Below are positions 24,883-59,900 of a stretch of 64,000 nt of DNA, one piece after another. Position 1 is the first letter of the stretch; every line of letters starts with the position of its first letter. Source of the DNA: an uncultured Gemmatimonadales bacterium (GTDB lineage Bacteria; Gemmatimonadota; Gemmatimonadetes; Gemmatimonadales; GWC2-71-9); assembly GCA_963771275.1 (NCBI GenBank), contig CAVYSW010000010.1:96001-160000 (forward strand). Direction: 5' to 3'. The notes under the pieces are model-generated. The model did no database searches, had not been told where the DNA came from, and worked only from the letters and a program-made list of their open reading frames with translations. Made by a program: the position numbers and the translations under genes.

Positions 24883-26604
24883 ATGAACCGAGGGGACTCG
24901 ACGCGTCGCACTGTCCGGGGGTTGGTGGGGCTCCTGGTTGCCACGGCGGTTGGACCGCGTGCGGCAACGGCGCAAGTCCGGCTGGTGCCCTTCGTGGGGA
25001 CGTTCGAGCCTCTGGGGGGCCTCGGTAGTCCTTCGGCGGCCAACGCGCAGAACGGTGTGTCGGCCGGGCAGACGCACGCCATGGCGTTCGGGATCGCGGC
25101 TGGTGGCAACCTCACGGGCATGTTCGGCGTGGAAGGCGCCGTAACCCTCGCTCCGTCGGGACTCGGCATCCACGTCCGGGAACCGACCACCGGCGGTGAG
25201 TTCACGCTGGTGCAGAAGGGCTGGATTCTACTGGCGAGCGCGCTCGCGGTGATGGGCCGGCCTGCGGACGGGTCCTACGGTGTCGCCGGCGTCGGCGTCC
25301 AGAAGCGGTGGGGGACGGCGTGGCAGGGTGTGGCAGGCGGTGACCTGTGGTCGGTGGGCGGGGTGTTCGGCATCGGAACCGCGGCCCGCCTGACCGATCG
25401 CTGGCGGTTGGACCTCCGTGCCGAGCTGCGGTTGTACGGCTTCGATCCGGATGGCGGGGGCACGGATTTCGGGTCGTCCCTGGCAACCGACCTGCTCGTT
25501 CGGGTGGGTGTTCCCCTGGCGCTCGGGCAGCCCCGGCGGGCGGACGCGGCGGCGGCGCCGGCTGCACGGAGGGTGGCCACGCGCGACACCGTCGCGGCCG
25601 TCGCGGAGCCTCCGGGGGCCGACCTCCCGCTCGGTGAATCCGTGGTCGCGGTCGCCGCCGGCGGGCGCCAGACCTGCGCCCGCACATCCGCCGGCACCGT
25701 GCGCTGCTGGGGCGCGGCCGGCGGCGCTCCGGCGCCGCGGGTCGACGCCGCACCGTCGCGGGCCGGCGTTACCACCCCGGCGTTGGCGGCGGGCCGCGAG
25801 CACGCGTGTGCCCTGAGCGGCCGTATCGCCCTGTGCTGGGGGAGCAATGCCGCCGGACAACTTGGAACAGACGACCAGCGTGCCCGCGAACACCGCATCA
25901 CCGGCGTCGAGCTCACCGCCCTGGCCGCGGGAGACGAGCACACATGCGGCATCACGGCGGACGGGGCGGTGCTGTGCTGGGGCGCGAACGACCGGGGCCA
26001 GCTGGGGGACGGGTCGACCCGCCGCCGAGCGCGACCGGCGCCGATCGCCGCGAAAGGCCGGTTCACGAGCGTGGCGGCCGGAGGCGACCACACCTGCGCG
26101 CTGCGCCAGGACGGGGTCGTGCTGTGCTGGGGCGACAACTGGTCGGGCCAGGTGGGGAGCGACATGATCGAGTCGATTCCTCAGCCGACCGAGATCGCGG
26201 GGGGGCGCCGCTTCGTGCAGCTCGCCGCGGGCGCCCGGCACACCTGCGCGCTCGACGCCCGAGGTGTGGCATGGTGCTGGGGGGCGAACGCTGCGGGCCA
26301 GCTCGGGGATGGCGGCCGGCGTCAGCGCAATCGGGCGTCCGCGGTGTCGGGCCCGGCGCGCTTCACCGTCGTCGCGGCCGGTGGGGACCACACCTGTGGG
26401 CTCACCGCGGAGGGGGAAGCATGGTGCTGGGGGCGCGGGCGTGACGGCGAGCTCGGCGATGGGGCGTCCGCCGACCGCGCCGTGCCGGTCCCCGCGCGCG
26501 GCGACTCCCGGTTCGCACAGCTGGCGGTGGGGGACCGCCATTCCTGCGGGCTCACCACCGACGGCCGCTTGCTGTGCTGGGGGGACTCCAGGGGGGCCCG
26601 CTGA
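24883..26604 (+). CDS. Outer-membrane beta-barrel fused to a C-terminal 7-blade RCC1/BLIP-II-like propeller
   Basis: Signal peptide (ATA/Q); ~180 aa of amphipathic strands paralogous to 26660-27298; Ala-rich linker; seven AG..HTC...CWG.N..GQLG repeats. Confidence 0.85.
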   Translation: MNRGDSTRRTVRGLVGLLVATAVGPRAATAQVRLVPFVGTFEPLGGLGSPSAANAQNGVSAGQTHAMAFGIAAGGNLTGMFGVEGAVTLAPSGLGIHVREPTTGGEFTLVQKGWILLASALAVMGRPADGSYGVAGVGVQKRWGTAWQGVAGGDLWSVGGVFGIGTAARLTDRWRLDLRAELRLYGFDPDGGGTDFGSSLATDLLVRVGVPLALGQPRRADAAAAPAARRVATRDTVAAVAEPPGADLPLGESVVAVAAGGRQTCARTSAGTVRCWGAAGGAPAPRVDAAPSRAGVTTPALAAGREHACALSGRIALCWGSNAAGQLGTDDQRAREHRITGVELTALAAGDEHTCGITADGAVLCWGANDRGQLGDGSTRRRARPAPIAAKGRFTSVAAGGDHTCALRQDGVVLCWGDNWSGQVGSDMIESIPQPTEIAGGRRFVQLAAGARHTCALDARGVAWCWGANAAGQLGDGGRRQRNRASAVSGPARFTVVAAGGDHTCGLTAEGEAWCWGRGRDGELGDGASADRAVPVPARGDSRFAQLAVGDRHSCGLTTDGRLLCWGDSRGAR

Positions 26605-26609
26605 AACGA

Positions 26610-26659: not shown

Positions 26660-27298
26660 TTACCGGCTCGGGAACGGGATGCCCACCTTGAGCACGATGT
26701 CGGGCCGGAACTTGGCACCGAAACTCGTGCTGCTCCCGCCGTCCGGGTCGAACGAGTAGCCATGCGCTTCGGCCTGGATCTCGAGCGCGAACTTGGGCGC
26801 CACGCGCGCGATCACGCCGAGTCCCAGCACGCCGCCGAACGACATCTTCTCGGAGCTCGTGTAGCCGGTCCACGCGCTGCCGCCGCGATACACGATGCCC
26901 GGGCCGAGCAACAGGAAGAAGTTCGAATTGCGGGGCCGGAACTTGAGGACCAGGTCCCCCATCATGATCCAGCCGTTGAGGTTCTCACTGGTGAGGCAGA
27001 GGCCGGGGAAGTTGGTGGGATCGAAGTTGCAGGCGCGGACGAACGCGTCGCTGGCGACGAACGTACCGGCGAGCTGCACGCCCAGCTGGTCCGAGAACAT
27101 GAAGCCGAAGCTCGCGCCGCCGCCCATGCCCTGGTTCTGAACCGCGTCGATCTGCCCCGACGTGCCGAGGTTCCCCACCGGGTAGTACCCGGCGAAGAAC
27201 GGCGTGACCTGCACCTGTGCCGAGAGCGGTGCGGCGCCCATCGCCCCGATGACCAGCAGCACCGCGCCGAAACCCGACATCCGTAGACGCATGCTCAT
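26660..27298 (-). CDS. Small outer-membrane beta-barrel protein
   Basis: Signal peptide (LSA/Q); alternating strands QVTPFFAGYYP, FFLLLGPGIVYR, FGGVLGLG and DIVLKVGIPF. Confidence 0.8.
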   Translation of the reverse strand: MSMRLRMSGFGAVLLVIGAMGAAPLSAQVQVTPFFAGYYPVGNLGTSGQIDAVQNQGMGGGASFGFMFSDQLGVQLAGTFVASDAFVRACNFDPTNFPGLCLTSENLNGWIMMGDLVLKFRPRNSNFFLLLGPGIVYRGGSAWTGYTSSEKMSFGGVLGLGVIARVAPKFALEIQAEAHGYSFDPDGGSSTSFGAKFRPDIVLKVGIPFPSR

Positions 27299-27426: not shown

Positions 27427-28326
27427 ATGAGCGTTCTGGGTGAGGCCGGTCGGACCCGGTTGAGCATCCCGGCGGTGCGGCCGGATCGGCCCGTCGATCC
27501 GTTCCTCGCGGCCGTGCGCGAGGCCGCCGGCGCGGATTATACCGTCTACGGGGAGATCGGCCGGGCTGGGGACGGCAGCATCGGGTACCTGGCGCGCGAC
27601 ACGCGGCGCGACGGTCTGGTCGCGCTCAAGCTGGCCTGCCGCCCGGGCGCGCCGGAGGAGTTCGAGCTCGAGGTCGTGCAGGAGCTGCGGGACGATCTCC
27701 CGGCGTTCGACAAGTTCTGCGCGAAGTGCGGCGGCGCCCTGCGCGCGTGGGGCCGGTTCTGCCCGCATTGCGGCGCGGAGGTCTTCGGGGACGTCGGGCC
27801 GTGGTCCCCGGAGGAGATGCGCCAGGCGGTGCTGGACTTCGCCGGCGACCGCTACGACATCCTCGGCGAGATGCGCAGTCAGGGCGGCCGGATCTACTTC
27901 GCGCTCGAGAAGGCGTCGGGCCGGATCGAGGCCTTGCGGCTGGAGAAGAAGGGTGCGGAGGAGTTCGCGCTCGGACTCACCGGCGTGCTGAAGCCGATCG
28001 TCCAGGGCGCTGCGCCGCCCCCCCCGCCCCCGCCCCCGCCCCCCCGGCCGCGCGCGGCGCCGCCCCCGGCGCCCCCCGGGATCTCCGCGGCACGCGTCGA
28101 GCCGGCGCGCCCCGGGTTGACGGCGCCCCCGCTCGCTGCCCGGCCGCGCCCTGCGGTGCCGCCGGCGCCGCCACGCCCGCCCGCTCGGGCTGCACGCCCG
28201 TGGGATGAGTGGATTGCACGCGCGCGCCCGCTGTGGGACGACCTGCTGCAGAGCCCCGCAGCCATCGTGGCCCTCGTCGTCATCGGCATTCTGGTGTTGG
28301 TGCTGGTGCTCGCGCTGGTCACCTGA
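27427..28326 (+). CDS. Tail-anchored protein: two kinase N-lobe-like fragments flanking a double zinc ribbon, Pro-rich linker, C-terminal TM
   Basis: YTVYGEIGRAGDGSIGYLARD...LVALKL; CAKC..CPHC; YDILGEM...IYFALEKASGRIEALRL; no HRD or DFG; terminal hydrophobic helix. Confidence 0.75.
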   Translation: MSVLGEAGRTRLSIPAVRPDRPVDPFLAAVREAAGADYTVYGEIGRAGDGSIGYLARDTRRDGLVALKLACRPGAPEEFELEVVQELRDDLPAFDKFCAKCGGALRAWGRFCPHCGAEVFGDVGPWSPEEMRQAVLDFAGDRYDILGEMRSQGGRIYFALEKASGRIEALRLEKKGAEEFALGLTGVLKPIVQGAAPPPPPPPPPPRPRAAPPPAPPGISAARVEPARPGLTAPPLAARPRPAVPPAPPRPPARAARPWDEWIARARPLWDDLLQSPAAIVALVVIGILVLVLVLALVT

Positions 28327-28384: not shown

Positions 28385-28858
28385 CTACTGACAGGTGTCG
28401 CGCGTCCGGGCGACCTGGAACTGCACCCGACTGCCGGTCTTGGGAACCCGCACGATCTCCAGCGGGAAGACGTCGATGTCCAGTTGGTTGCAGGCCGTCG
28501 TGATCGTCACGAAGGCGCGGAAGATGTCCTTCTGTGTCCCGACGCTATCCACGTGGATCCGGTCGCCGGCCTTCATGCGCCCGGCCGCCGCGATCAGCAG
28601 CATCTCCTTGTCGAAGTCGACGTTCGGGAGCGACGGCGGATTGGGATTGGTCGAGGTCACGCGCTCCCACTGGCGCTGCCAGTCGAGCGCGTCGGTGACT
28701 GCGACGTAGGACGAGTCCTGCAAGCCACCGGCGTCGTCCTGGTAGACGATCGCCTCGGGCGCCACCGGCCGGAACGGCGTGGACACCACGATGGCGCGGG
28801 AGCACGCGCTCCCGGTGAGGCCGGCGGCAGTCAGCAGTAGCGGAATCCAGGGTTTCAT
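28385..28858 (-). CDS. Lipoprotein with PrcB-C-like domain
   Basis: GSA-C lipobox; W..QW...P.LPNVDFDKEMLL...G and P..IVRVPK pattern; starts 40 bp after the tssM stop. Confidence 0.7.
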   Translation of the reverse strand: MKPWIPLLLTAAGLTGSACSRAIVVSTPFRPVAPEAIVYQDDAGGLQDSSYVAVTDALDWQRQWERVTSTNPNPPSLPNVDFDKEMLLIAAAGRMKAGDRIHVDSVGTQKDIFRAFVTITTACNQLDIDVFPLEIVRVPKTGSRVQFQVARTRDTCQ

Positions 28859-28898: not shown

Positions 28899-31800
28899 TT
28901 ACGGTCGGCACACGAGCCGCGAGAAGTAGCCCGGTTGTAGGAGGGGTTCTCCCACCGGGGTGATGCTGCCTTCCACGGCATATGTCGTTCCCTCCCGCTG
29001 GATGTTCCACACGACCCGGAACTCGCCGCGGGAGCGCGCCTCCCAGCGCGCCTGCCCGAACAGCCGGAAGACGCCCCACTGCTCGGGATAGCTGAGAATC
29101 TCGAGGTCCCGGCCTCCCACAGTGACGGACAGCGACGCGCCGCGCGCCTGCTCGGCGACCCACTGGAACACTTCGCTCTGGGTGGCGTTGCTCTGCGTGC
29201 GGCTCATCGGGTGCCCATCGATCACGAGCTTGACGCCCCGCGTGCCGGGCGGCGGGGACAACCGCACCGAGAAGCCGAGCCGGGGTCCCTGACCCTGGGC
29301 GTCGAACCACGTGTTCGCCACGCGCATGGCGCGGTTGTAGAAATCCACGAACGCGCGCGAGATCGCGGGGTTCGGGGCGTTCAGCACGTACTCGTTCGCG
29401 CGCCGCACGAGCGCGCCGCCGAGCGCCTCGGCGTTGAGCCGCGCCAGCTCCCCGTCCTGCGGGTGGAAGATCCGGGCCACGTCGCGCAGCTGGGCCGCCG
29501 ATCCCGCGGCGCTGAACGGGAACCGCGTCATCACCTGGTTGTAGTCGGTGCAGACTGCGCGGATCTGCCCGGCGATCTGCTGCCCCGGCAGCCGCTGCAG
29601 CAGCGCCTCCACCCGGGCGAGCGGATCGTCGAGCAGGCGCCGCATGCTGCCGCCCACGTCCGCCGCCTCGTCCGCGCTGCTGAAGGTCCGCACGAGATCC
29701 TGCGCGGCGCCGCGCGCGGCATTTGCCTGGCCGAGGGCCGCCGTGCGCTCAGGATCCCCACCGGCCGAAACCTGCTGCAGCGCCCGCGCGAGCGCGTCCA
29801 GCGCCGTGACGTAGCTGCGATTCGCCTCCACGATGAGCTGGTCGCCCGCGGCCGGCATCACGGCGTGCACCGGCTGGAACACGCGTCCCAGCACGACGGA
29901 GTCCACGCCGGTGTTGGCCGAGACCACGGCAAGCAGCTGCAGCAGCGGCGACCGCGGCGCGGCGAGCGCCGTGATGCCGGTGGCGGCGCCACCCACCCCG
30001 CCGGGGAGCGTCACCTGGGCCGCTCGCAGGAAGTTGCGCCACTGCGTCACGTAGTCCGCCTCGTAGCGCGCGCGCAGCGTGCGTGTGAGGTCGCCGGCGT
30101 TGCCCCCCGCCGCCGCCTGGCAGCTCAGCGCCTGATAGATCCAGTCCTCGCCCGGCGCACTGAGCTCCCCCTTCGCGAACGCGTCGTGGACCAGCCGCCA
30201 GCCGTCGGCGCTGAACGCCGGCGGCACCTCAGCCGTCACGCGGACCAGCGCGTCCGTGAACCGGATCGGCGGCCGGCCTCCGGCCGCTCGGCTGAGCAGC
30301 GACTGGTAGACCCGGTCGACGTCGCTGAACCCGGTCAGCATGGTGCACGCGCGCGTCGCGAGCATCGCGTCCGGCGCGACCGCGCAGGTCGTGCCGCCGC
30401 CGCACAGCTCGCCGCCGTAGAACCGCAGCTGGCGAACGGCGATCGTCCGATCCTCGCCCTCGAGTCGCACGCCCACCGGCGAGCGTCGCAGCAGCGCCTC
30501 GCCGGCGTCCGGCGTGAGGTGGTCGGGCTGAGACGTCACCATCAGGTAGGCGGCCACGCGCCCGTTGGCGCTGTCCAGCGAGACGCCCTCGACGTTCGCG
30601 GTGAGCGCCGTGAGCTCCCGCCGCACCGAGTCGCGGATGCCGTTGAGGAGGAACGACTGCAACGCGTTCCAGTAGACGGACCGGGCCGGGGCGGCCATCG
30701 CGGCGCCGCGGTAGAGACCCCACCGCAGACGCCAGGGCGGCCCGTGCTCCGCGTAGCCGTGCAGCGTCTCGAGCTGGGTCCGCAGCGCGTCGAGAGCGCG
30801 CAGCGCGAGCGGCAGCGGCTCCGAGGCCGCCATCCCGTGCACGGCTTGCGCGGCGCGCACCACGCGCGAGGAGAGCAGGCGGTTGCCGATGAACGAGACG
30901 GTGAAGCCGAGCGCGAACACCAGCCCGAGCGCCGCGACGGAGGCGAAGGCGACGCGCCGCAGCTGGCGCAGCCCGTGACCGGACTGGGTGAGGCCGAGCG
31001 CGACGCGATCCCGCTGGATGACCTCGTGGAACAACCCGTTGAGGAACAGCCACTGCGGCACACGTCGTCCCGGTCCCCGCGGGGGCTCGGCCTGCCGGGC
31101 CAGCGCGGCGCGCTCTTCCGCGGTGAGCACCTGCGTGGCCCGCACGGCGCCGGCGTCCGCCGACGGCGCGGCCGCGGCGGGCGCCCCGTCCACGACGATC
31201 GCGCGCACCCCGGCGAGATAGAAGCCCCGCAGGAACGGGCTCACCTCGAGCTGTCGTGGGCGGCACAGCTCGACGAGAAACTGGTCGGCCAGCGGCGCGA
31301 GCTTGCGCAGCTCGCGCGGAAACTCGTACGCGGTCGCCCGGTCCGCGCCGCCGGCGATGCGCGGCAGAAGGCGCAGCCGTTGCGCCGCGAGCGATCCGAT
31401 CAGCTCCTCGAGCGCGGCGCTGACGCGCTGGTGTTCCCGATCGGCGTGGGCGCCCGCCGCGATCGGTGGAGCCAGCCGCAGCGTGGCGCCGACCGCCTGC
31501 CGGCCCTCCTCGCCGGCCAGTTGGCCGACGAACTCCGGGAAGCAGCGGATGCGATCCGCTTTGGTGAAGATCACGTAGACGGGGAGCCGGATGCCCAGCG
31601 TCCGGGAGACGGTGGAGAGCCGCTCGCGCAGCACGCGAGCCGCGTTCACGACGGGCTCCTGGTCGCCCTTGACCAGGTCCTCGCAGCTGAAGCACACCAC
31701 GGCGGCCCGCGGCGGCTGCGGGCGACCGGCCAGCACGGCGGCGAGCCGCTTGGGCCGCAGCCGCTGCACCAGGTGGCCCCAGCGGCCGGGATCACCCACC

Positions 31801-32276
31801 AGCTTCCCGCCCGGCTCGACGATCAGCACGCCCCGGGCGTACCACAGGTTGACGTTCGTCGTCGGGGCGACACTCTGGCCGCGCGCGGTTTCGCCGGCGA
31901 GCAGGTCGGGCTCGAGCCCGGAATGGAGAATCGTGGTGGTCTTGGCGCTCCCCTCGGCTCCGAGCACCAGAACCAGTGGGAGATCGCTCAGGGCCCGTAC
32001 GCCCTGCAGGCGCGCCGCCGCCAGACGCTGTCCCGCATGGGTGAACGCCGTGTCGATTTCGTCCGCGGCGGCGCCGCTCGCGCTGCGCCGCGCCCGCTGG
32101 TGCAGGAACCACCCGATCAGGACGGCGACCGCGCCGCCCAACAGGAGCAGGCCCCCGCGGAACACCCACAGGTTCCAGCCCTTGAGCCCCAGCGCGCCGC
32201 CGAGCCACCACACGAGCAGGGCGAACACGCCGTACACGGAGAGCGTAGGTAGCGCGGACCTCACCGAGCGTTGCAT
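28899..32276 (-). CDS. tssM: T6SS membrane complex protein TssM (IcmF/ImcF)
   Basis: Two N-terminal TMs, LPLVLVLGAEGSAKTT, RLPVYVIFTKAD, PFLRGFYL, third TM, WGLYRG, Y..QWRNFL, RFPF and WGVFRLF; 1125 aa. Confidence 0.92.
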   Translation of the reverse strand: MQRSVRSALPTLSVYGVFALLVWWLGGALGLKGWNLWVFRGGLLLLGGAVAVLIGWFLHQRARRSASGAAADEIDTAFTHAGQRLAAARLQGVRALSDLPLVLVLGAEGSAKTTTILHSGLEPDLLAGETARGQSVAPTTNVNLWYARGVLIVEPGGKLVGDPGRWGHLVQRLRPKRLAAVLAGRPQPPRAAVVCFSCEDLVKGDQEPVVNAARVLRERLSTVSRTLGIRLPVYVIFTKADRIRCFPEFVGQLAGEEGRQAVGATLRLAPPIAAGAHADREHQRVSAALEELIGSLAAQRLRLLPRIAGGADRATAYEFPRELRKLAPLADQFLVELCRPRQLEVSPFLRGFYLAGVRAIVVDGAPAAAAPSADAGAVRATQVLTAEERAALARQAEPPRGPGRRVPQWLFLNGLFHEVIQRDRVALGLTQSGHGLRQLRRVAFASVAALGLVFALGFTVSFIGNRLLSSRVVRAAQAVHGMAASEPLPLALRALDALRTQLETLHGYAEHGPPWRLRWGLYRGAAMAAPARSVYWNALQSFLLNGIRDSVRRELTALTANVEGVSLDSANGRVAAYLMVTSQPDHLTPDAGEALLRRSPVGVRLEGEDRTIAVRQLRFYGGELCGGGTTCAVAPDAMLATRACTMLTGFSDVDRVYQSLLSRAAGGRPPIRFTDALVRVTAEVPPAFSADGWRLVHDAFAKGELSAPGEDWIYQALSCQAAAGGNAGDLTRTLRARYEADYVTQWRNFLRAAQVTLPGGVGGAATGITALAAPRSPLLQLLAVVSANTGVDSVVLGRVFQPVHAVMPAAGDQLIVEANRSYVTALDALARALQQVSAGGDPERTAALGQANAARGAAQDLVRTFSSADEAADVGGSMRRLLDDPLARVEALLQRLPGQQIAGQIRAVCTDYNQVMTRFPFSAAGSAAQLRDVARIFHPQDGELARLNAEALGGALVRRANEYVLNAPNPAISRAFVDFYNRAMRVANTWFDAQGQGPRLGFSVRLSPPPGTRGVKLVIDGHPMSRTQSNATQSEVFQWVAEQARGASLSVTVGGRDLEILSYPEQWGVFRLFGQARWEARSRGEFRVVWNIQREGTTYAVEGSITPVGEPLLQPGYFSRLVCRP

Positions 32277-32283: not shown

Positions 32284-32979
32284 TCAGCTCCCCATGCCGG
32301 CCAGCCGGGAGATGCCGGAGCGCAGCGACAGGGCGTAGAGCGCGAACAGCAGCAGCGCGAGCCCGAACGCCGCCAGAGCCGACCACTTGAGCCGCGGGAG
32401 CCACCGGTCGGGCGTCACCTCGGGGCGCTCGCCTGGCGGCAGGCGCCACGCGGCGGCGAGGTCCGTCGTGGTCCCCCGAATGCGCTGGATCTTCTCGTCG
32501 GTCGCGGTCATCAGCGCCTGGATGTCTCCCCCGCCCCCGGCGCTGTACTGCCCGCGGAAGCCGAGGATCAGACACAGTTGATAGACCTCGAGCACGTCGG
32601 CGATGTCGTCGGAGTTCTCGCGCGCGAGCAGCCCGCGGAGATTCTCGAAGAACGTGCGGCCGCCCATGTGGTCGCCGAAGACCTCTTCCTGCAGCGGCAT
32701 CCGCGGCCACTCCGCGAAGGCCGGCAGGCTGGAGGTGAGCACGGCTTCGTCGAGATACACGACGAACGCGTACACGGCCAGGCCGACCTCGGTCCCGCCG
32801 TACCCCAGCTGTCGTGCCTCGCGATCGGCCTGCGCGATCAGCTGCTTCGCGTGGTTGCGGAATGCCGTGGCATCGGCCGCCACGTCGCGCCCGGCGCGGA
32901 GCCGCGCGCCCGCCGTGAACGCTTCCTGCAACCGCAGGGCGAGCTGGCCGCGGCGGCCGGCTGGACGCGGGTCGCTCAT
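32284..32979 (-). CDS. tssL: T6SS protein TssL (DotU), no OmpA domain
   Basis: YAFVVYLDEAVL, W...PLQ..F, GG..FF, LEVYQLCLILGFRGQY, C-terminal TM. Confidence 0.93.
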   Translation of the reverse strand: MSDPRPAGRRGQLALRLQEAFTAGARLRAGRDVAADATAFRNHAKQLIAQADREARQLGYGGTEVGLAVYAFVVYLDEAVLTSSLPAFAEWPRMPLQEEVFGDHMGGRTFFENLRGLLARENSDDIADVLEVYQLCLILGFRGQYSAGGGGDIQALMTATDEKIQRIRGTTTDLAAAWRLPPGERPEVTPDRWLPRLKWSALAAFGLALLLFALYALSLRSGISRLAGMGS

Positions 32980-37570: not shown

Positions 37571-37662
37571 GAGGCGATAACCTAGCGCCGGAGGGCATGA
37601 AGTCCAGTCTGGCGTGCCGTCGGGCTGGCGCGTGCCCCCGAGGGCTGACATGTTTCCGCGGC

Positions 37663-39211: not shown

Positions 39212-39745
39212 ATGCCCAAGGAAAGCGTACACAAGAAGCTGGAGCGGGTTCGCCCGCCACGGGTGAACATCACCTACGACGTCGAAGTCGGGGACGCGAT
39301 CGAGACCAAGGAACTCCCGTTCGTCATGGGAGTATTCGCCGATCTCACGGGTCAGCCCACCGAGCCGTTGCCCAAGCTCAAGGACCGCAAGTTCGTCGAG
39401 GTCACGCTCGACAACTTCGACGACGTGCTGAAGCGGATGCAGCCGCACCTCACGCTGGCGGTCGAGAACAAGCTCAGTGACGAGGCCAACGCCGGGAAGA
39501 TGGCCGTGGATCTCACGTTCGAGGGCCTCGACGACTTCCGGCCCGACCGCGTCGCGGGGCGGGTGGAGCCGCTGAAGAAGCTGCTCGACCTGCGCACGCA
39601 GCTGGGCGATCTGCGCGGGAAGCTGCAGGGCAACGACAAGCTCGACGATCTGCTGCAGAAGTCGCTGACGGACGCGGAGAAGCGCAAGCAGCTCAAGGGC
39701 GAGCTGGATGCGGAGGGCGGCTCCGAGGGAGGGAAGGATGGCTAA
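39212..39745 (+). CDS. tssB: T6SS sheath small subunit TssB
   Basis: RVRPPRVNITYDVE, ELPFVMGV, RKFVEV..DNFD and DDFRPD. Confidence 0.97.
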   Translation: MPKESVHKKLERVRPPRVNITYDVEVGDAIETKELPFVMGVFADLTGQPTEPLPKLKDRKFVEVTLDNFDDVLKRMQPHLTLAVENKLSDEANAGKMAVDLTFEGLDDFRPDRVAGRVEPLKKLLDLRTQLGDLRGKLQGNDKLDDLLQKSLTDAEKRKQLKGELDAEGGSEGGKDG

Positions 39746-44278: not shown

Positions 44279-44291
44279 GCCGAGGCGACCG

Positions 44292-50323: not shown

Positions 50324-50338
50324 CCCGGGAGGTACGCG

Positions 50339-52333: not shown

Positions 52334-52335
52334 CC

Positions 52336-52950
52336 ATGCCCGACACGACGGCGGTGCTCCGGTCGGGCAAGACGGTGGCGCAGATCTGCGAGGTGGCGGA
52401 GCTCAGCGACGAGGCGCGCGCGCTCCGCGCCGAGGGCCAGGCGGCCCGGCAGTTTGCCGAGCTGTTGATCGCGCGCGCGCTCTACCCCGACGCGGTGCGC
52501 TTCCTGGCGTGCGCGCTGCCGCGCCGCGAAGCGGTGTGGTGGGCGTGGGTGTGTGCGCGCCGCGCGGCGGGGGAGACGCCCCCCGCGCCGATCCAGGCCT
52601 CGCTCGAGGCCACGCAGCAATGGATCGCTGAGCCCACCGATCAACGCCGGCGCGCCGCGATGCAGCACGCCCAAGCGGCGGGCTTCGGGACACCGGCGGG
52701 GAGCGCGGGGCTCGCCGCCTTCCTCTCGGGAGGGTCGTTGGCGCCGCCGGACGTCGCGGCGGTGCCGCCCGGGGAGTTCATGGCGGCCAAGGCGATCGCG
52801 GGGAGCATCGTCCTGGCGGCCGTCATGATCGAGCCGGAACGCGCGGATGAGAAGTTCCGGGGGTTCGTGGAACAGGGCATGGTGGTCGCCGAGAAGACCG
52901 ACCTGTGGACGCCGCCGGCGACGCCCGCCGGCCAGGCCGCGAGGAGGTAG
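52336..52950 (+). CDS. T6SS-associated helical protein resembling DUF6931
   Basis: DAVRFLACALPRREAVWWAWVC, W...P....RRAA and A.F.SGGSLAP; lies between vgrG and PAAR. Confidence 0.7.
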   Translation: MPDTTAVLRSGKTVAQICEVAELSDEARALRAEGQAARQFAELLIARALYPDAVRFLACALPRREAVWWAWVCARRAAGETPPAPIQASLEATQQWIAEPTDQRRRAAMQHAQAAGFGTPAGSAGLAAFLSGGSLAPPDVAAVPPGEFMAAKAIAGSIVLAAVMIEPERADEKFRGFVEQGMVVAEKTDLWTPPATPAGQAARR

Positions 52951-52955
52951 CGCTC

Positions 52956-53258
52956 ATGGGTATGCCAGCCGCGCGCGCTGGGGACATGCACGTCTGTCCC
53001 ATGGTCACGCCGGCGGTGCCGCCGATCCCGCACGTTGGCGGCCCGATCCTCCCACCCGGGTGCCCGATGGTCCTGATCGGCAGCATGCCTGCCGCACGGG
53101 CCACGGACATGTGCGTCTGCGTCGGCCCACCCGACCTCATCGCGATGGGCTCGACCACGGTGCTGATCGGCAGCCTGCCGGCCGCGCGGCTGGGCGATCC
53201 CACCGCGCACGGCGGCGCGATCGTCATGGGTTGCCCCACGGTGCTGATCGGACCCTAG
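52956..53258 (+). CDS. PAAR-domain spike tip protein (100 aa)
   Basis: Three PAAR motifs with HVCP, CVC and TAHGG; GAGGAGG RBS. Confidence 0.95.
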   Translation: MGMPAARAGDMHVCPMVTPAVPPIPHVGGPILPPGCPMVLIGSMPAARATDMCVCVGPPDLIAMGSTTVLIGSLPAARLGDPTAHGGAIVMGCPTVLIGP

Positions 53259-53267
53259 GGCCTCACG

Positions 53268-54242
53268 ATGGATCAGTACTACGACGGCGACTACTGGAAG
53301 CTGAGCCTCGAGGAGCGGGTGCGGGCGGCCCGCGTCCGGATGGAGGAGGCGCACGCCCGGGTCGACGCGTCGCGCGCCCGACTCGCGGAGCTGCCGGACA
53401 GCGAGACGGTCGTCGTCGAGGTCACCGATACCGCCTTGGCGGCATCGTCCTCCCAGTACCAGGATCCCCGCATGCGCGCAATGGCGCGTCCAAAGCCGGC
53501 AAAGCCGGCCGAAATCCTCGAGATGGTGGTCCGGAACGACGAGGAGCGGAAGCATCTGTGGAAGCAGTACCTGCTGGATTTCGAGTGGTACCTGACCGCC
53601 AAGCTCGAATACGAGCGGCTGCTCGCCGAGATCGAGCGGACCCGGATGCATGCCCCGGAGAATCGACCACCGAGCGACTCCCGCAACGAGCGGCAACCGG
53701 TGAGCCCGCCGGCTACCGTCACGCCGGCCGCGCAGCCGGACCAGGAAGCCGAGCGCTGCACCGAGATCCGCCGCCGACTGCGGAGGACGGTGAAGCAGCT
53801 GCGTCGGGACCCCTCCGCCGCCGCGATGCGGCGAGCCCTGGTCGATCTGGCCCACGGGCAGACGAGGGGGTGCGGGGAGAATCCCCAGACCACCGATGCC
53901 TGGGAGGCCATCGAGGACGCCGCGGTGGCGCGCGCGGCGGCGGCGAAGCAGAAGTTCAAAGCGCATCCCACGTCAGAGAACTACCGGCAATGGCTGAACC
54001 GCCGGGCGGAAGGGCAGCTGTTCGGGCGCGAAGAGGAGACCACCGCGGACCCGCTCGCCGGCGTGACCCGGCTGCGCCCGCCCGGGACGTACCAGATTCA
54101 GCCGGGCGATACGTTGTCCAAGCTCGCCAAGGCGTTCTACGGGCAGGAATGGCTCTGGTACGTGATCTACGAGCGGAACTGGGGCGGCACACCTGACAAC
54201 CCCAATCTGATCCTGCCGGGCTTGGAGCTGGAGATTCCCTGA
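53268..54242 (+). CDS. Hypothetical helical protein with C-terminal LysM domain
   Basis: YQIQPGDTLSKLAKAFYG...W..IYERN...NPNLILPG.ELEIP; no signal peptide; last gene of the vgrG operon. Confidence 0.8.
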   Translation: MDQYYDGDYWKLSLEERVRAARVRMEEAHARVDASRARLAELPDSETVVVEVTDTALAASSSQYQDPRMRAMARPKPAKPAEILEMVVRNDEERKHLWKQYLLDFEWYLTAKLEYERLLAEIERTRMHAPENRPPSDSRNERQPVSPPATVTPAAQPDQEAERCTEIRRRLRRTVKQLRRDPSAAAMRRALVDLAHGQTRGCGENPQTTDAWEAIEDAAVARAAAAKQKFKAHPTSENYRQWLNRRAEGQLFGREEETTADPLAGVTRLRPPGTYQIQPGDTLSKLAKAFYGQEWLWYVIYERNWGGTPDNPNLILPGLELEIP

Positions 54243-54302: not shown

Positions 54303-56183
54303 CTACTTGGCCTGCGCCAGCCCCGCGGGAAGGAACCGCCAGGCGTACTCGACCGGCACGGCCTCGTTCTGCTGGTACTGCGCGCCGCGGTCCGCCGTCG
54401 CGAATCCGGCGTGGTTGACCCCGACGACGGCGAGCTTCGTGCCGAGCAGCGGGCCGCCACTCGAGCCGCCGATCCCGCCCAGCGTGTGGTAGGAGATCGA
54501 GTTCGACGTCACGCCCGACACGCTCATGTTCCCGCTCACGTCCGGCTGCAGCTGCTTCGCCTGCACGAGCGCATCCAGCTCGGCGGCTCCCGCCACGGCG
54601 TTCACGGTCTGCAGCAGCAGGAACACTCCCAGATCGGACTGGACCAGCGCCTGGAGCTGCTTCTCGTCGTCCGGCAGCCCCCGGAGCACGGCCTCGAGCC
54701 CGGTTTCCCGGGCGAAGGCGCCGACGGCCCGCTGCACCGCCGCCTGCACCTGGTCGCTCAGCGAGGCGTCCACGAAGCTCCCGACCCCTCGCCGCTGCGC
54801 CGTGACCTCGGTGCCGCCCGGGTAGGCCAGCATCACGATGTCCTCACCGGCCACTACCTGCTGGCCCCGCGCCAGCGGCAGCACCGGCACCCCTTGCGGG
54901 GTCCGCGTCGTGCGGAACAGGCCGAGGTCGTGCTCGCGTGAGGCCTGCACCGTCTGGGCGTCGACCTCGTACATGGCCCCCGGCGGAAACGCGATCCGCC
55001 ACCCCGCGATGGCCGGCTTGAACACGATGTCGCCGTTCTTGCCGAGGTTCAGCGTGGCCTGCTTGATCATCTCGGCGCTGGCAAACGGCAGGTCGACGCA
55101 GTGACGGTTCGTGAGTACCCAGCCGGCTGCGTTGATCAGGAAGCCGGTGCACTGCGAGGTCGTGAGCAATGCCAGATGGTCGTTCTGATCGGTGCTGAGC
55201 CCGACCTTGCCGTCCTGGGTTCCCCGAATCCGCAGCCAGCCGGCCTGCTCGTTGAACCAGCCGATCCGGAACTCGATGAGCCCGACACCCGCGGCATAGC
55301 GCTGCGTCACCGTGGGCCCGAACCGCCGGTCATCCTGGACGGCCTGGCGCTGCTGGGCGATCTCCTGCTTCTGGCGGTCGAGCTCCGCCCGGTTCTGCTG
55401 GAGATTCTGCGTCAAGGACTCGGCCTGGCTTTGCCACTGCGTGGCCGTCGAGGCGAGCTGCGAGAGCTGCTGCTCCAGCGCCGCGCGGGCGTCGCCTTGG
55501 GAGCGCAGCTCGCTGCTCATCGCCGTCAGCTCGCCACGCAGCGCCGCGGCCTTGCGCTCACTCAGCACGAACACCAGCCCCACGGCTACGGCCCCGGCGA
55601 CCGCCACGAGGATGAGCGCGACCTTGAGTCTCCGACTGGCCTTCTCCTGCGCCAGCTTGACGAACGCCTTCATCACCGCCGTCTGGCTCGGGCGGCCGCT
55701 CGTCGCGGCCGCGGCCGCCTGGTCGCGGGCCATGACGTACAGGCCCGTGAGTCCTGAGCCGGAGGAGGACCCGCCACCCGCCAGTGGAGTCGCGGGCGCC
55801 TTCGCGGCTTTGGGCGGAACGTAGGCCGTGGCGGGGGAGCCCCACGCCGCGGGTATCGGGGCGGTTGCCATGCCCTCGTCCGCGACGACCTCGAACTGGG
55901 CGGCGGGCCCGTTCGGGCCGAACATGATCGTCTGGCCCGCCCGGATCTCGCATTCCTTGACCTGGCGGCCGTCCACGAAGGTGCCGTTGCGGCTGTTTTC
56001 GTCCCGCACGTAGAACCGGCCGCCGACCTCGTAGAGCGTGGCATGATGGCCCGAGACCACCACCTCGCTGGGGCTGAACTGCAGCGTGCAGTCCGGGCTG
56101 CGCCCCACCGCCACCTCGAAGCCCGTGAGCTCGAAATCGGTCCCAGCCCTGCTTCCCGACGTGAAGACGAGCCGCCCGCGCAT
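54303..56183 (-). CDS. FHA domain - TM - coiled coil - trypsin-like serine protease (626 aa)
   Basis: GGAGG RBS then ATG 56183; FHA motifs VGR, VSGHHA and SRNGTFVDG; TM; Q-rich coil; TNRHCV, HDLGL and GGSSGGPL triad. Confidence 0.9.
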   Translation of the reverse strand: MRGRLVFTSGSRAGTDFELTGFEVAVGRSPDCTLQFSPSEVVVSGHHATLYEVGGRFYVRDENSRNGTFVDGRQVKECEIRAGQTIMFGPNGPAAQFEVVADEGMATAPIPAAWGSPATAYVPPKAAKAPATPLAGGGSSSGSGLTGLYVMARDQAAAAATSGRPSQTAVMKAFVKLAQEKASRRLKVALILVAVAGAVAVGLVFVLSERKAAALRGELTAMSSELRSQGDARAALEQQLSQLASTATQWQSQAESLTQNLQQNRAELDRQKQEIAQQRQAVQDDRRFGPTVTQRYAAGVGLIEFRIGWFNEQAGWLRIRGTQDGKVGLSTDQNDHLALLTTSQCTGFLINAAGWVLTNRHCVDLPFASAEMIKQATLNLGKNGDIVFKPAIAGWRIAFPPGAMYEVDAQTVQASREHDLGLFRTTRTPQGVPVLPLARGQQVVAGEDIVMLAYPGGTEVTAQRRGVGSFVDASLSDQVQAAVQRAVGAFARETGLEAVLRGLPDDEKQLQALVQSDLGVFLLLQTVNAVAGAAELDALVQAKQLQPDVSGNMSVSGVTSNSISYHTLGGIGGSSGGPLLGTKLAVVGVNHAGFATADRGAQYQQNEAVPVEYAWRFLPAGLAQAK

Positions 56184-56351: not shown

Positions 56352-59300
56352 ATGAGCGTCAGCATTACCTGCACGCGGTGTGGCCAGCCGATGAGCGCGA
56401 GCGACCGGTTCTGCGCCAACTGCGGCACCGGGAACCCGATGGTCGGTCGACAGGCCGATTCCAGTGGCTCCGGGTCGGTGTGGGATGCCGTGCAGCAGTC
56501 GCTGCGGGTGGCGACCCGCGGGGAGTTCGACATCGCCGGTGAGTTGGGCCACGGCGGGATGGCCGCCGTCTATCTGGCGCACGACATCGGGCTCGACAAG
56601 AAGGTCGCCATCAAGGTCATGGCGCCCGCCCTCATGGCCGACCCCAGCATGATCGGCCGGTTCCAGGACGAAGCGCGCACCGTCGCGAAGCTCGAGCACC
56701 CCAACATCGTGACGGTGCACGCCGCCCGGCAGGCGGGGGGTCTGTACTTCTTCGTGATGAAGTACGTCGTCGGGCGTGACCTCGACTCCATCCTCGAGCA
56801 CGGGCCCCTGCCCCTGGCGGTGGTCCAGGCCGTGATCTATCAGGTGGCGACGGCGCTCCAGTACGCGCACGGCCGCAATGTGATCCACCGCGACATCAAG
56901 CCCAGCAACGTCATGGTCGACCTCGAGGGCAACGCGGTGGTGATGGATTTCGGCATCGCGAAGCTGCGGGGGGCGCGCGGCCATACCATGGTCGGCGCGG
57001 CGATCGGCACGCCGCCCTACATGAGTCCCGAGCAGTGCCTCGGCAAGGAAGTGAGTCCCGCGTCCGACCAGTACTCGCTCGGGATGGTCACCTACCATCT
57101 GCTCACCGGCCGGCCGCCGTTCAGCGGCGAGCCGATCCCGGTGATGCGGCAGCAGATCGAGGTCGACCCGCCGCCGATCGAGCACCTGGCGGAGGGCCCG
57201 TGCCCGCCGAAGGTCCGCGACGGGGTCCGCCGCATGCTGGCCAAGGCCCCGGAGGATCGCTGGGGGTCGGTGGTGGAGGCGGCTCGCGCGCTTGGAGGGC
57301 ACCCGGTCGCGGTCGACGACCCGTTGCGCGACGAGATCGCGCGCCTGTCTCAAAGCGGCGGGTTCATTCCGCCGACGCAGATCTTCACGACGCCGCTCAG
57401 CCCCTCGCCGCAAGTCGGCTGGACACCCGGGCCGGTCGCGCCCACCGTGCCGATCACGCCGACCCCCTCGGCGCCCGTGACGCCGCCGGCCTCGGTGCCC
57501 TTCGCGGCGCCGCCATCGGCTCCCGTGACCCCGCCGTCAGCCGCACCGCTCACGCCGCCGACGGTCCCATACACGGCGCCCCCGGTGATCCAGCCATCGG
57601 CACCGCTCACGCCGCCGCCGTCGGGCCCGCTCACGCCGGCACCCGTGCCACCCTTCACGCCGCCGCCCATGGCGCCGGCCACGGTGCCGTACACGCCGTC
57701 GATGGCGGGTCCGGTGAGCACCCCCCCGAGTGGTATCGGCGAGCTGCCCCCAATGGCGCCGCCCGTGGTGCCGGCCACCGCGCTCGTCCCACCGGACGCG
57801 CTGCAACCCGCCGGGCTCGCCGCGGCGCCCGCCACGGCGCCGATGCCTGCGGCGGCGCCGAGTCGCCCACGCACGGGCCCCGTTGCCGCGGCCGCGCTCA
57901 GGCCTCAGCCCAAGCCGCCCTGGCTGCTGATCGGCGGCGCGGCCGTGGCGGTCGCGGCCGTCGCGGTCGTCGTCATGCTCGCCTTGCGGCAGCCCGCCAC
58001 GAGTGACGTGACGCTCGCGGTGGCGCCGCCCGAGTTGAATCTTGGCGCGGGGCAGGAAGGGACATTGTCGATCGACGGCGTGCCTGGTGGGACGCCGGTC
58101 GCGTGGCGCTCGAGCGACGATGCCGTGGCCACGGTCGATGCGGACGGACGGGTCCGGGCCGTGCGGGAGGGCCGGGCGCTCATCATCGCGTCTGCCGCCG
58201 ATCGCGCCGATACGGCGGTCGTGACGGTCGCGCCCGGAGCCGTGGCCGAGCCGCCCCGGACGGCGCGGCTCGAGGTTCGCCCGGCCGACACGCAGGTCCA
58301 GGTCGGCGACGCGGTCACGCTGCGGGTGGAGGCGTTCGATCAGGGCAACCGCAGCATGACGGCACCCCAGGTCCGCTGGCGGTCGTCCAACGAGCGGGCC
58401 GTGGCGGTGACGCAGGCGGGGACCGTGACGGGGCGGGCGGTTGGGTCGGCCACCGTGACCGCCGCGGCGGGCGGCGTGGAAGCCAGCGCCATCATCCGCG
58501 TCCTCGCCGTCGCCCGGCCCGCGGACACCACCGGGCCGCCGCCGCCCCCACGGCGCGTGGCGGTCGTCGCCGTCACCCCACCGCGCATCGAGCTGGACGT
58601 CGGCCAGACCGCCGCGGTCATCGCGGAGGCGCGGGACGCGCAGGGCAGGCCGTTCGACCGACCGATTGCGTTCCGATCGGACAACGCAGGCGTGGCGAAC
58701 GTGTCGGAGCGCGGCGAGGTGCGGGCCGTGGCACCGGGAAACGCGGTGATCGTGGCGGCGAGCGACGGGATCGAGGGCCGCGCCATGGTCCAGGTGCGCG
58801 CGCCGGCACCACCGCCACCGCGGGACACCGCCGTGGCTCCGGCACCCGCGCGAACGGTCACGTTCGCCGGCATCGCGGCGGGGAGCGCGCATACGTGCGC
58901 GGTGGCGTCGGGGGATGAGGCCATCTGGTGCTGGGGCGGAAACGACCGAGGACAGATTCAGCCCGGCTCCGGACAGGGAGCGCGCGTGCTCCAGCCGGTC
59001 GCCCTGGCGGGGACGGCGGCCGAGCTCGCGGCGGGCGCCGAGCACACATGCGCGCTGGCCGACGGCCAGGTGACGTGTTGGGGGCGCAACACCGAAGGGC
59101 AGTTGGGCACGAGCGACCTCAAGGCCACCCGATACACGGTTCCCGGCCTGCGCTTCGAGGAGATCAGTGCCGGTCCGGCGCACACCTGCGGCCTCACCAC
59201 CGCCGGCCAGGTCTACTGCTGGGGCAAGAACGACATGGGGCAGCTGGGTGACGGGTCCAGCAGCCGGCGTGCAAAGCCAACGCCGATCGCGGCGAGCGCC

Positions 59301-59900
59301 AAGTTCACGGCCGTTACCGCCGGCGGGTCGCATACCTGCGCGCTGCGCGCGGACGGCGCCGCGGTCTGCTGGGGCAGCAACTGGAGCGGGCAGATCGGCA
59401 GCGGCATGATCCAGTCATTGCCGTCGCCGACGGGCGTGGGAGGCGGCGTGAAGTTCCGCGAGCTGGTGGCGGGTGGCGACCACACCTGTGGTATCTCGAC
59501 TGCCGGCAAGCTGTTCTGCTGGGGCAAGAACTCGGCGGGCCAGGTAGGTGACGGTTCCAAGAGCCAGCGCAGCGCCCCCCAGGAGGTGCAATCCAAGGAG
59601 AGCTTCACGCTGGTGGTCGCCGGCAAGGAGCACACCTGCGCGCTGGCGTCCGGCGGCCGGGCATTCTGCTGGGGACGCGGCCGGGAAGGCGAGATCGGCG
59701 ACGGCACCACCCAGGATCGCACGACGCCGACGGCGGTTCGCGGCAACGAAGCCTTCGCGTCGCTCGCTGCCGGCGACCAGCACACGTGCGGGGTTACGAA
59801 GGCGGGCGCGGTGCTGTGCTGGGGAGCGAACGCGGGCGGACAGCTCGGGTCGGGTGGCAACCAAGCGGCCGCGGCGCCCGCTCCGGTCAAGCTCCGCTGA
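56352..59900 (+). CDS. Membrane Ser/Thr kinase: zinc ribbon, kinase, Pro/Thr repeats, TM, three Ig-like (Big_2) domains, 7-blade RCC1 propeller
   Basis: CTRC..CANC; GHGGMA, VAIK, HRDIKPSN, DFG and GTPPYMSPE; three [WF]RS....V...G.V repeats; seven HTC...CWG repeats. Confidence 0.93.
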   Translation: MSVSITCTRCGQPMSASDRFCANCGTGNPMVGRQADSSGSGSVWDAVQQSLRVATRGEFDIAGELGHGGMAAVYLAHDIGLDKKVAIKVMAPALMADPSMIGRFQDEARTVAKLEHPNIVTVHAARQAGGLYFFVMKYVVGRDLDSILEHGPLPLAVVQAVIYQVATALQYAHGRNVIHRDIKPSNVMVDLEGNAVVMDFGIAKLRGARGHTMVGAAIGTPPYMSPEQCLGKEVSPASDQYSLGMVTYHLLTGRPPFSGEPIPVMRQQIEVDPPPIEHLAEGPCPPKVRDGVRRMLAKAPEDRWGSVVEAARALGGHPVAVDDPLRDEIARLSQSGGFIPPTQIFTTPLSPSPQVGWTPGPVAPTVPITPTPSAPVTPPASVPFAAPPSAPVTPPSAAPLTPPTVPYTAPPVIQPSAPLTPPPSGPLTPAPVPPFTPPPMAPATVPYTPSMAGPVSTPPSGIGELPPMAPPVVPATALVPPDALQPAGLAAAPATAPMPAAAPSRPRTGPVAAAALRPQPKPPWLLIGGAAVAVAAVAVVVMLALRQPATSDVTLAVAPPELNLGAGQEGTLSIDGVPGGTPVAWRSSDDAVATVDADGRVRAVREGRALIIASAADRADTAVVTVAPGAVAEPPRTARLEVRPADTQVQVGDAVTLRVEAFDQGNRSMTAPQVRWRSSNERAVAVTQAGTVTGRAVGSATVTAAAGGVEASAIIRVLAVARPADTTGPPPPPRRVAVVAVTPPRIELDVGQTAAVIAEARDAQGRPFDRPIAFRSDNAGVANVSERGEVRAVAPGNAVIVAASDGIEGRAMVQVRAPAPPPPRDTAVAPAPARTVTFAGIAAGSAHTCAVASGDEAIWCWGGNDRGQIQPGSGQGARVLQPVALAGTAAELAAGAEHTCALADGQVTCWGRNTEGQLGTSDLKATRYTVPGLRFEEISAGPAHTCGLTTAGQVYCWGKNDMGQLGDGSSSRRAKPTPIAASAKFTAVTAGGSHTCALRADGAAVCWGSNWSGQIGSGMIQSLPSPTGVGGGVKFRELVAGGDHTCGISTAGKLFCWGKNSAGQVGDGSKSQRSAPQEVQSKESFTLVVAGKEHTCALASGGRAFCWGRGREGEIGDGTTQDRTTPTAVRGNEAFASLAAGDQHTCGVTKAGAVLCWGANAGGQLGSGGNQAAAAPAPVKLR

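Follow-up and report, generated by a model that had tools for sequence, protein, structure and literature searches.

A motif-repeat protein with a kinase N-lobe-like domain lies between duplicated tssK genes in type VI secretion loci of Gemmatimonadota

A type VI secretion system (T6SS) locus was analysed in a window of 64 000 nucleotides, positions 96001–160000 of contig C10 in the genome of an uncultured Gemmatimonadales bacterium (GCA_963771275.1, here G000; 3.86 Mb, 70% GC, 11 contigs). Gene frames were assigned from third-position GC, one frame being chosen per stretch, and genes were named from Pfam and NCBIfam scans. An earlier account made from the letters of the window (the sequence-only reading) had singled out five unusual genes, labelled here P1–P5 (24883, 27427, 34581, 56183 and 56352), as a trans-envelope phospho-signalling system wrapped around a non-canonical T6SS; all five were recovered at these coordinates and start codons with the domains that it had called, and the gene map placed them flanking or interrupting the T6SS. 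The analysis centres on P3, which is encoded between two tssK genes and is a fixed part of this T6SS cluster type. From left to right, beginning after a DUF2339 gene, the features of the locus are as follows.

24883–26604 (+): P1, with a signal peptide, a small outer-membrane beta-barrel and an RCC1 propeller (Pfam RCC1/WD40_RLD).
26660–27298 (−): OMP_b-brl outer-membrane barrel (PF13505, 1.4e-7).
27427–28326 (+): P2, with a zinc ribbon between two kinase N-lobe-fragment units, a Pro-rich linker and a C-terminal transmembrane (TM) anchor.
28385–28858 (−): lipoprotein in the TssJ position (lipobox in the translation).
28899–32276 (−): TssM (IcmF domains in Pfam).
32284–32979 (−): TssL (DotU; PF09850, 1.6e-43).
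33013–34356 (−): TssK1, a divergent paralogue (PF05936, 1.4e-120).
34581–36200 (+): P3, with a kinase N-lobe-like domain, a Pro-rich linker with PGEFTxxFG repeats and a C-terminal TM anchor.
36197–37651 (−): TssK2 (PF05936, 3.8e-134).
37597–39140 (+): truncated TssB-like and TssC-like pair (VipA 1.8e-8, VipB 1.1e-40, no VipB_2).
39212–54242 (+): tssB, tssC, hcp, tagJ (impE), tssA, tssE, tssF, tssG, clpV, vgrG, DUF6931, PAAR and a LysM protein (Pfam).
54303–56183 (−): P4, with a cytoplasmic FHA domain, a TM helix, a coiled coil and a periplasmic S1 protease (Pfam FHA, Trypsin_2), divergent from P5.
56352–59900 (+): P5, with a zinc ribbon, a Hanks kinase, a TM helix, three Big_2 domains and an RCC1 propeller (Pfam).

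The T6SS-i core (TssA, B, C, E, F, G, H, K, L and M, Hcp, VgrG and PAAR) was found together and above the Pfam cut-offs. The lipoprotein in the TssJ position (157 residues, with a lipobox) gave no TssJ match in Pfam or NCBIfam; its place 3' of tssM is kept in relatives. The unusual features of the core are a second tssK, TssK1 and TssK2 being 35% identical, and an additional sheath-like pair, the TssC-like member of which is without the C-terminal gpW/gp25-like domain. The term non-canonical holds for the two tssK genes and the truncated tssB/tssC-like pair and does not hold for the core genes, all of which are present. The window T6SS belongs to a Gemmatimonadota type with a complete T6SS-i, a duplicated tssK and P3 between the copies.

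Four samples were used: the 41 nearest genomes (G000 included), 401 genomes of Gemmatimonadota, 81 genomes of a second family taken one per genus, and 80 TssC-baited public loci. The T6SS is patchy, being present in six of the 41 nearest genomes (G000 counted); a TssK2-like gene was found in 42 of the 401 phylum genomes and TssC in 22 of the 81 second-family genomes. The closest TssC loci are those of Gemmatimonadota, and the more distant relatives (57–70% identity) come from Acidobacteriota, Binatus and Deltaproteobacteria-labelled metagenome-assembled genomes (MAGs) and Oxalobacteraceae. The truncated sheath-like pair recurs in some T6SS loci labelled Gemmatimonadota, Acidobacteriota or Deltaproteobacteria (L013, L049, L061, L046, L075, L083, L085–L091, L094, L096, L106, L108, L126, L129 and L130).

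P3 was located between tssK1 and tssK2 in all 21 TssC-baited loci in which both tssK genes were in view, one Terriglobia-labelled MAG among them. The P3 profile gave no match in the remaining Acidobacteriota, the delta or the Oxalobacteraceae loci, nor in the 3.5 kb before tssK2 of the Gemmatimonadaceae locus L108, which has tssK2 alone in view. All 14 tssK1–tssK2 gaps that were inspected by eye contained an open reading frame (ORF) of the same build, namely a conserved N-terminal domain of ~100 residues, a Pro-rich linker and a C-terminal TM helix; the linker carries two to six P-G-(E/A/D)-(F/Y)-T-x-(L/M)-F motifs and a final G-P-S-(D/E)-F-T-R-I motif. A profile of 15 aligned N-domains (A1) matched 40 of the 401 phylum genomes, with one copy in each. 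The sequence-only reading had tied the GEFT-repeat protein to the T6SS, and P3 was indeed present in 39 of the 42 TssK-positive genomes; the other three (G016, G049 and G057) each have a single distant TssK, and one genome (G138) has P3 without TssK. The second-family sample gave 19 genomes with P3 and TssC, three with P3 alone, three with TssC alone (82–88% complete) and 56 with neither. In two single-contig genomes (G157, locus L031; G276, L034) a frame change near the C-terminus of P3 removes the TM anchor from the main frame; these copies contain either sequencing errors or real breaks.

An exhaustive search of 1.84 billion cluster representatives (50% identity) with the P3 profile returned 1007 proteins at E ≤ 1e-3, of which 496 reached E ≤ 1e-10; the match lay at the N-terminus in every case. 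Among the best 150 proteins, 102 were at least 300 residues long, and of these 99 carried at least one strict motif and 84 at least two. P3 had no match in Pfam or NCBIfam and its residues 36–150 returned nothing at E ≤ 1e-3 in a word-indexed homologue search; its atlas neighbours, which serve as a lead only, were 'hypothetical protein' clusters from Gemmatimonadota and Acidobacteriota. A spurious high-GC ORF was ruled out by the domain, motif and position, which are conserved across the phylum.

The AF2 model of the P3 N-domain (pLDDT 87.5) comprises a helix followed by b1-b2-b3-aC-b4-b5-aD. The 50 Foldseek PDB matches listed were without exception to protein kinases, the alignment falling on the kinase N-lobe (probability 1.00, E 3e-3 to 1e-2, TM ∼0.5 on the query). 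Designed repeat proteins, which were matched at E 3e-4 in a PDB sequence profile search, were judged to be spurious low-complexity matches. An invariant His occupies the position of the catalytic Lys in b3 of the family alignment, and the domain stops after aD with no C-lobe and no HRD or DFG motif, the linker alone lying beyond; because a kinase N-lobe without a C-lobe is all that is present, P3 cannot be a kinase. No signal was obtained when the P3 profile was compared by hhalign with the kinase sequence of P5 alone.

The window P3 has a TM helix at its C-terminus and carries, besides a degenerate GGFTQVI motif, four motifs of the form GEF(T/S)xxFG; a six-frame scan of the genome located GEFT..F in the P3 ORF and in one other place. 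In 151 family proteins the motif was counted 308 times, compared with 0.2 times in shuffles, with the logo P-G-E-F-T-(R/Q)-(L/M)-F-G-A-P and Phe at position +3 in 90%. When the central residue was left free, 312 instances were obtained, with Thr in 308, Ser in two, Asn in one and Leu in one. FHA recognition is strict for Thr and prefers a hydrophobic residue at +3, and Hanks kinases with a beta-branched DFG+1 residue are Thr-preferring. Judged from the motifs, the strict Thr and the Phe at +3 of P3 fit what FHA recognition would demand, and the Ile at DFG+1 of P5 appears compatible with a Thr-preferring kinase. The self-recognised phosphothreonine (pThr) of GarA/OdhI stands in a similar acidic-x-T-x-hydrophobic-F context, which is a lead only.

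P5, at the cluster border, contains a zinc ribbon, a kinase domain (Pkinase 5.6e-44) with intact VAIK, HRD and DFG motifs in the translation, a TM helix, three Big_2 domains and an RCC1 propeller (4.3e-92). Since G000 encodes about 50 Hanks kinase domains in 3.86 Mb, a kinase is expected in ∼6% of 5 kb flanks. A serine/threonine protein kinase (STPK) gene was found within ∼5 kb of the tssJ/tssM end in seven of 12 well-assembled loci (G092, G276, G235, G185, G258, G268 and G320, and not G157, G218, G361, G140 or G238), and kinases lie upstream of the T6SS in several Acidobacteriota loci too. A single orthologous PpkA-like clade of T6SS-adjacent kinases was ruled out by a quick tree of 63 kinase domains. 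In this tree P5 and its G001 orthologue grouped (support 98) with zinc-ribbon/Big_2 kinases of G000 and with a Big_2 kinase at the T6SS border of G320. The adjacent kinases of Gemmatimonas-like and second-family loci grouped apart from P5, one such group being placed next to a G000 kinase in an FHA/PP2C cluster on contig C3. This cluster (C3:188600–192300) has the order FHA, FHA, kinase, PP2C, FHA, an arrangement resembling that of actinobacterial FhaA/FhaB-PstP-PknB. Of the G000 kinases, the one encoded in it is closest to the T6SS-adjacent kinases of the second family.

P4 contains an FHA domain (residues 25–89, 2.5e-15), a TM helix, a coiled coil and a Trypsin_2 domain (345–472, 3.2e-14). 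The pThr-binding residues R, S, H and N of the FHA domain and the His/Asp/Ser of the protease are intact in the translation, and the predicted topology is cytoplasmic for the FHA domain and periplasmic for the protease. Against the TagH/Fha family TIGR03354 it scored 36.4 bits, below the cut-off of 120.25. It is the sole FHA-Trypsin_2 gene found in G000; its FHA part was matched in 31 of the 41 nearest genomes. In G001 the P4 orthologue is again divergent from the P5 orthologue and stands beside Imm49 and DUF6484/DUF2345 genes. The stretch upstream of it (L014, G001:C158, 1–4200) holds Imm49 immunity-like, DUF6484/DUF2345 spike-like and HEAT-repeat genes, a content of T6SS cargo type, with no core T6SS genes in view on the contig. 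A shorter FHA-TM-Trypsin_2 family (∼470–490 residues) is widespread. The P4 matches of the ten best relatives comprised eight FHA plus Trypsin_2 proteins, one that is cut by a contig end and one FHA plus SLT protein. This last protein (L012, G011:C84) has an FHA domain, a TM-like stretch and an SLT lytic transglycosylase in place of the protease, and is another case of a cytoplasmic FHA domain coupled to a periplasmic enzyme.

In the second family FHA-Trypsin_2 was found in 16 of 81 genomes, 14 of which have TssC and 14 P3 (14 genomes with both FHA-Trypsin_2 and T6SS, two with FHA-Trypsin_2 alone, eight with T6SS alone and 57 with neither); it was present in two of the 59 TssC-negative genomes. 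It is single-copy and embedded in the cluster beside an STPK gene in G258, G268 and G320, and the gene order in this family is FHA-protease, STPK, tssJ, tssM, tssL, tssK1, P3, tssK2. Where contigs allow the distance to be taken, the FHA-protease and P3 are ∼9–10 kb apart in seven genomes; in two others the distance is 17 and 38 kb. In an FHA-protease tree P4 and its G001 orthologue grouped with a kinase-adjacent 597-residue protein of G037, apart from the second-family clade; the linkage of the FHA-protease to the T6SS must therefore have arisen, or been kept, in at least two branches.

P2 consists of a helix-plus-four-strand unit in two copies (A and B) flanking a zinc ribbon, followed by a Pro-rich linker and a tail anchor. 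Its zinc-ribbon matches in Pfam were all below threshold, and its AF2 model (pLDDT 85.7, pTM 0.81) gave no Foldseek match at E ≤ 1e-3. Comparison with kinase N-lobes by VIA-align gave middling Z scores of 5.3–7.4, with kinase N-lobes dominating and unit A alone involved. The zinc ribbon and unit B match the N-termini of zinc-ribbon kinases, including P5, in the gene of which the P2 module profile (A2) matched at C10:152361–152621 (3.2e-11); unit B also aligned with b1–b3 of P3 (hhalign 62%, E 7e-5). This module, which is found elsewhere at the N-terminus of kinases, stands alone in P2. In the sister species G002, G003 and G006 P2 is 3' of tssJ on the same strand, and in the window it is convergent with the gene in the TssJ position. 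In G218 and G140 the P2 module is the N-terminus of an STPK 7–17 kb beyond vgrG, and in G001:C104 a P2-like gene adjoins a barrel and an RCC1 kinase. The G218 protein (L041, 8283–12029; 1248 residues) comprises a P2-like module, a (K/D)FTxAF motif, a zinc ribbon, a kinase and a PEGA domain, the FT-type motif standing immediately before the kinase domain. A looser tally of the P2 module gave 108 of the 401 phylum genomes, mostly as N-termini of zinc-ribbon kinases (G202 and G084, which are flagged as unpublished, are included). P2 is enriched in T6SS genomes and is not specific to them. A decaying pseudogene was ruled out by the intact ORFs, the confident fold and the 46–50% identity among five same-genus copies from three species. 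The probable role of P2, at the tssJ end of the cluster, is that of an adaptor or decoy for kinases.

P1 has a signal peptide, an N-terminal barrel region that is 32% identical over 203 residues to the product of the adjoining OMP_b-brl gene, and RCC1 repeats (WD40_RLD 1.7e-63) that are 49–50% identical to those of P5, which bears out the sharing of domains among the five proteins. Neither P1 nor the barrel was found beside P2 in G002, G003 or G006, the contigs of which extend past P2, and the earlier assignment of P1 to the T6SS was not supported. Barrel homologues adjoin RCC1 receptor-kinase genes at eight loci in five related genomes; at one of these, in G001, the neighbour is the C-terminal half of the P5 orthologue. 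No barrel homologue was found next to the G000:C9 paralogue, nor in G003:C354. The occurrence of barrels beside RCC1 kinases, and not beside P2 of the sister species, speaks for a pairing of kinase and outer-membrane barrel without dependence on the T6SS. P1 and the adjoining barrel probably serve RCC1 receptor kinases as partners in the outer membrane. CsgG-like lipoprotein genes (PF03783), some of them TPR-fused and often accompanied by Big_2/Flg_new_2 proteins, recur beside the T6SS-adjacent kinase in G092, G157, G276, G268, G185, G320 and G258 (loci L027, L030, L035, L038, L042, L047 and L054) and may encode the outer-membrane partners in those lineages; none was found in the window.

Other genes of the window include an enolase at 16152–17473, which is broken up by a frameshift or assembly error: one ORF covers Enolase_N and the beginning of Enolase_C, and a second, which overlaps it, covers the remainder of Enolase_C. 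A PG_binding_1 plus Peptidase_C70 protein (AvrRpt2-like cysteine protease) at 18944–19678, ∼9 kb from the tssJ end, could be a cell-wall enzyme or an effector. A lipoprotein (59946–60761) and two adjoining Peptidase_M14 carboxypeptidase genes (60839–63999) follow 3' of P5.

The reading that we tentatively prefer, with less than even confidence, is a variant of threonine-phosphorylation control of T6SS assembly in which P3 is a candidate multi-site phospho-acceptor. P3 is a tail-anchored inner-membrane protein with a cytoplasmic dead kinase N-lobe and a long disordered Pro-rich tether bearing the P-G-E-F-T-(R/Q)-(L/M)-F motifs. The threonines of these motifs would be the targets of a Hanks kinase encoded at the cluster border (here P5, a receptor kinase whose Big_2 and RCC1 domains are periplasmic). 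With pThr at several sites, the tether would then bring partners to the membrane complex or raise their concentration there. In loci that encode such a partner in the cluster (here P4) it would be an FHA protein, the periplasmic S1 protease of which would thereby be placed at the firing site. The starting points are the gene content, folds, motif conservation, co-occurrence and synteny described above, from which we infer phosphorylation of P3, FHA binding, protease recruitment and all of the protein–protein contacts. The idea of phospho-control in the sequence-only reading survives to the extent that kinase and FHA-type genes are recurrently tied to this T6SS type; the notion of the five genes as one unit does not.

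Several results weigh against P3 phosphorylation as set out here. The T6SS-adjacent kinases are polyphyletic, with at least three origins in the 63-domain tree, and the clade of P5 consists of zinc-ribbon/Big_2 kinases that lie mostly elsewhere in the genome and is not the commonest T6SS-adjacent clade. No PP2C gene is present in the window (PF13672; five loci elsewhere in the genome, the nearest on C10 at 334682), and no TagF or TagQRST was found among the 27 ORFs scanned, as the sequence-only reading had stated for all three. A full-length P4 orthologue was found in one of 40 relatives (G001, 44% identity), and the T6SS of G006 stops at PAAR and is without P4 and P5. Seven of the eight FHA-Trypsin_2 proteins among the ten best P4 matches come from genomes without a detected T6SS. 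No FHA domain was found in or near the cluster in any of five well-assembled P3-bearing T6SS genomes (G092, G157, G218, G185 and G361), which belong to two families and in which P3 carries the motifs; a cluster-encoded FHA reader is therefore not general. The full-length P2 module occurred in 25 of the 401 phylum genomes, 12 with P3 and 13 without. As regards P3 itself, the Foldseek E-values for the N-lobe are modest, the PDB sequence profile search with this domain reached kinases only at E ∼1, and one of the four motifs of the window copy has the Ser variant. The sampled genomes are akin to one another, and Fisher values for co-occurrence consequently overstate significance.

The alternative that survives best, doubtful as it is, treats P3 as a structural or assembly scaffold of a double-TssK T6SS. 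The FT motifs would act without phosphorylation, either by binding a T6SS part (e.g. TssK1) or by driving clustering, and the nearby kinase and FHA genes would be separate regulators or unrelated. The universal presence of P3 in this T6SS type, in which the cluster FHA gene is not universal, and its constant place between the two tssK paralogues agree with such a role, and condensate-forming disordered scaffolds have been reported for Fha and PpkA of other T6SSs (PMC12607579; PMC13389060). Purely hydrophobic docking would, however, hardly account for Thr, and almost never Ser, in 308 of 312 motifs, and neither the enrichment of kinase genes at the cluster border nor the kinase-derived N-terminal domain of P3 is in its favour.

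It is unlikely, although to be reckoned with, that P4/P5 and P1/barrel merely abut the T6SS as an envelope-signalling module of their own, in which a receptor kinase would have a partner in the outer membrane and the FHA-protease as its output; only P3 and in part P2 would then belong to the T6SS. Paralogous pairs of RCC1 kinase and OMP barrel do occur away from T6SS genes (the eight loci in five genomes given above), and in G001:C104 kinase-RCC1, barrel and P2-like gene are contiguous with no T6SS genes in view; the spread of FHA-Trypsin_2 among T6SS-negative relatives, the abundance of kinases in the genome, the separation of P5 from most T6SS-adjacent kinases and the G006 locus point the same way. 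Set against this are the embedding of STPK and FHA-Trypsin_2 in T6SS clusters of at least nine genera of another family, the P5-type zinc-ribbon/Big_2 kinase beside an FHA-protease at the T6SS border of G320, the place of the G001 pair beside cargo-type genes and the finding of no FHA-Trypsin_2 gene other than P4 in G000.

A stronger form of the phospho-acceptor reading, which we consider distinctly unlikely, would make P3 a 'phospho-barcode' scaffold and a new class of T6SS component: the N-lobe would dock the Hanks kinase or the extra TssK, the pThr tether would nucleate assembly and, in some lineages, the FHA-protease would be pulled to the firing site. If true, the phosphorylation state in the cytoplasm would position a periplasmic protease, i.e. 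inside-out signalling. Least probable of all is the single obligatory trans-envelope relay of the sequence-only reading, from propeller sensing to kinase, pThr scaffold and FHA-recruited periplasmic protease, since the five genes, although all present, intact and domain-sharing, with fitting topologies (FHA and kinase cytoplasmic, protease and propellers periplasmic) and two propellers that are 50% identical, did not co-segregate with the T6SS as a unit when scored in related genomes.

The place and timing of T6SS assembly are an active question in which Fha and PpkA scaffolds and condensates figure (PMC12607579; PMC13389060). A soil and sediment bacterial phylum gains a fixed, uncharacterized T6SS accessory protein without a Pfam family. 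Multi-site phospho-control is what the architecture of P3, with a dead kinase lobe, invariant-Thr repeats and a membrane anchor, would predict. In P4 an FHA domain and a protease are joined across the membrane, and no such output of T6SS regulation is described in the literature searched. Even if the phospho-acceptor mechanism is wrong, tssK duplication together with P3 is a clean genomic marker of a T6SS subtype.

Threonine phosphorylation of the H1-T6SS of P. aeruginosa involves TagQRST, PpkA, PppA and Fha1, and the periplasmic part of PpkA contains a von Willebrand A domain. The pathway is summarized in PMC3953482. The window locus likewise combines a T6SS with genes for an FHA protein and for a membrane Hanks kinase that has a periplasmic domain, and outer-membrane/periplasmic partners are plausible. 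It differs in the periplasmic part of the kinase (Big_2 and RCC1 in P5), in the TM helix and S1 protease of P4, which falls below the TagH cut-off, in the absence of PP2C, TagF and TagQRST from the window and in the additional P3 and P2. Membership of the PpkA/PppA/Fha pathway fails on TagH, PppA and TagF/TagQRST; at most, the locus works like those systems.

In Agrobacterium tumefaciens PpkA phosphorylates Thr14 of TssL, to which Fha then binds (PMC3953482). P3 is likewise tail-anchored in the inner membrane with the same topology as TssL, the pThr of which is FHA-read, whereas that of P3 is only predicted. TssL is also present here, and P3 differs from it in being an additional protein, which has a kinase N-lobe domain and several repeats of the site along a disordered tether. 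In the TssW–PpkA–Fha axis of Acidovorax citrulli a protein of the outer membrane binds TssM and the inner-membrane kinase, the latter through its periplasmic domain, and the kinase acts on the Fha scaffold (PMC12607579). By analogy, P1/barrel, P5 and P4 may follow a similar trans-envelope logic, although with other domain families and with a link of P1/barrel to the T6SS that is not conserved.

Among pseudokinases, YukC/EssB is reportedly a membrane component of the type VIIb secretion system, and the pThr of mycobacterial MviN recruits the FHA protein FhaA. P3 resembles both in having a dead kinase-fold domain that is membrane-anchored and in or regulating an envelope machine, but it keeps only the N-lobe (∼100 residues), adds repeated Thr motifs and belongs to a T6SS. 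P4 shares Trypsin_2 with His/Asp/Ser with HtrA/DegP and differs in having no PDZ match in Pfam and in its cytoplasmic FHA domain and TM helix; against the NCBIfam HtrA equivalog models it scored 18–20 bits, the cut-offs being 416–470.

No description of P3, of P2 or of an FHA-protease in a T6SS was found in the literature searched, most subscription journals being outside reach. To this extent the sequence-only reading, which knew of no description of the architecture, is borne out, while the concept has precedents in Acidovorax citrulli (PMC12607579) and in TagQRST–PpkA–Fha1 of P. aeruginosa. The regulatory principle is known; the novelty lies in the kinase-fragment modules, in a protease as the output and in P3 as a constant component.

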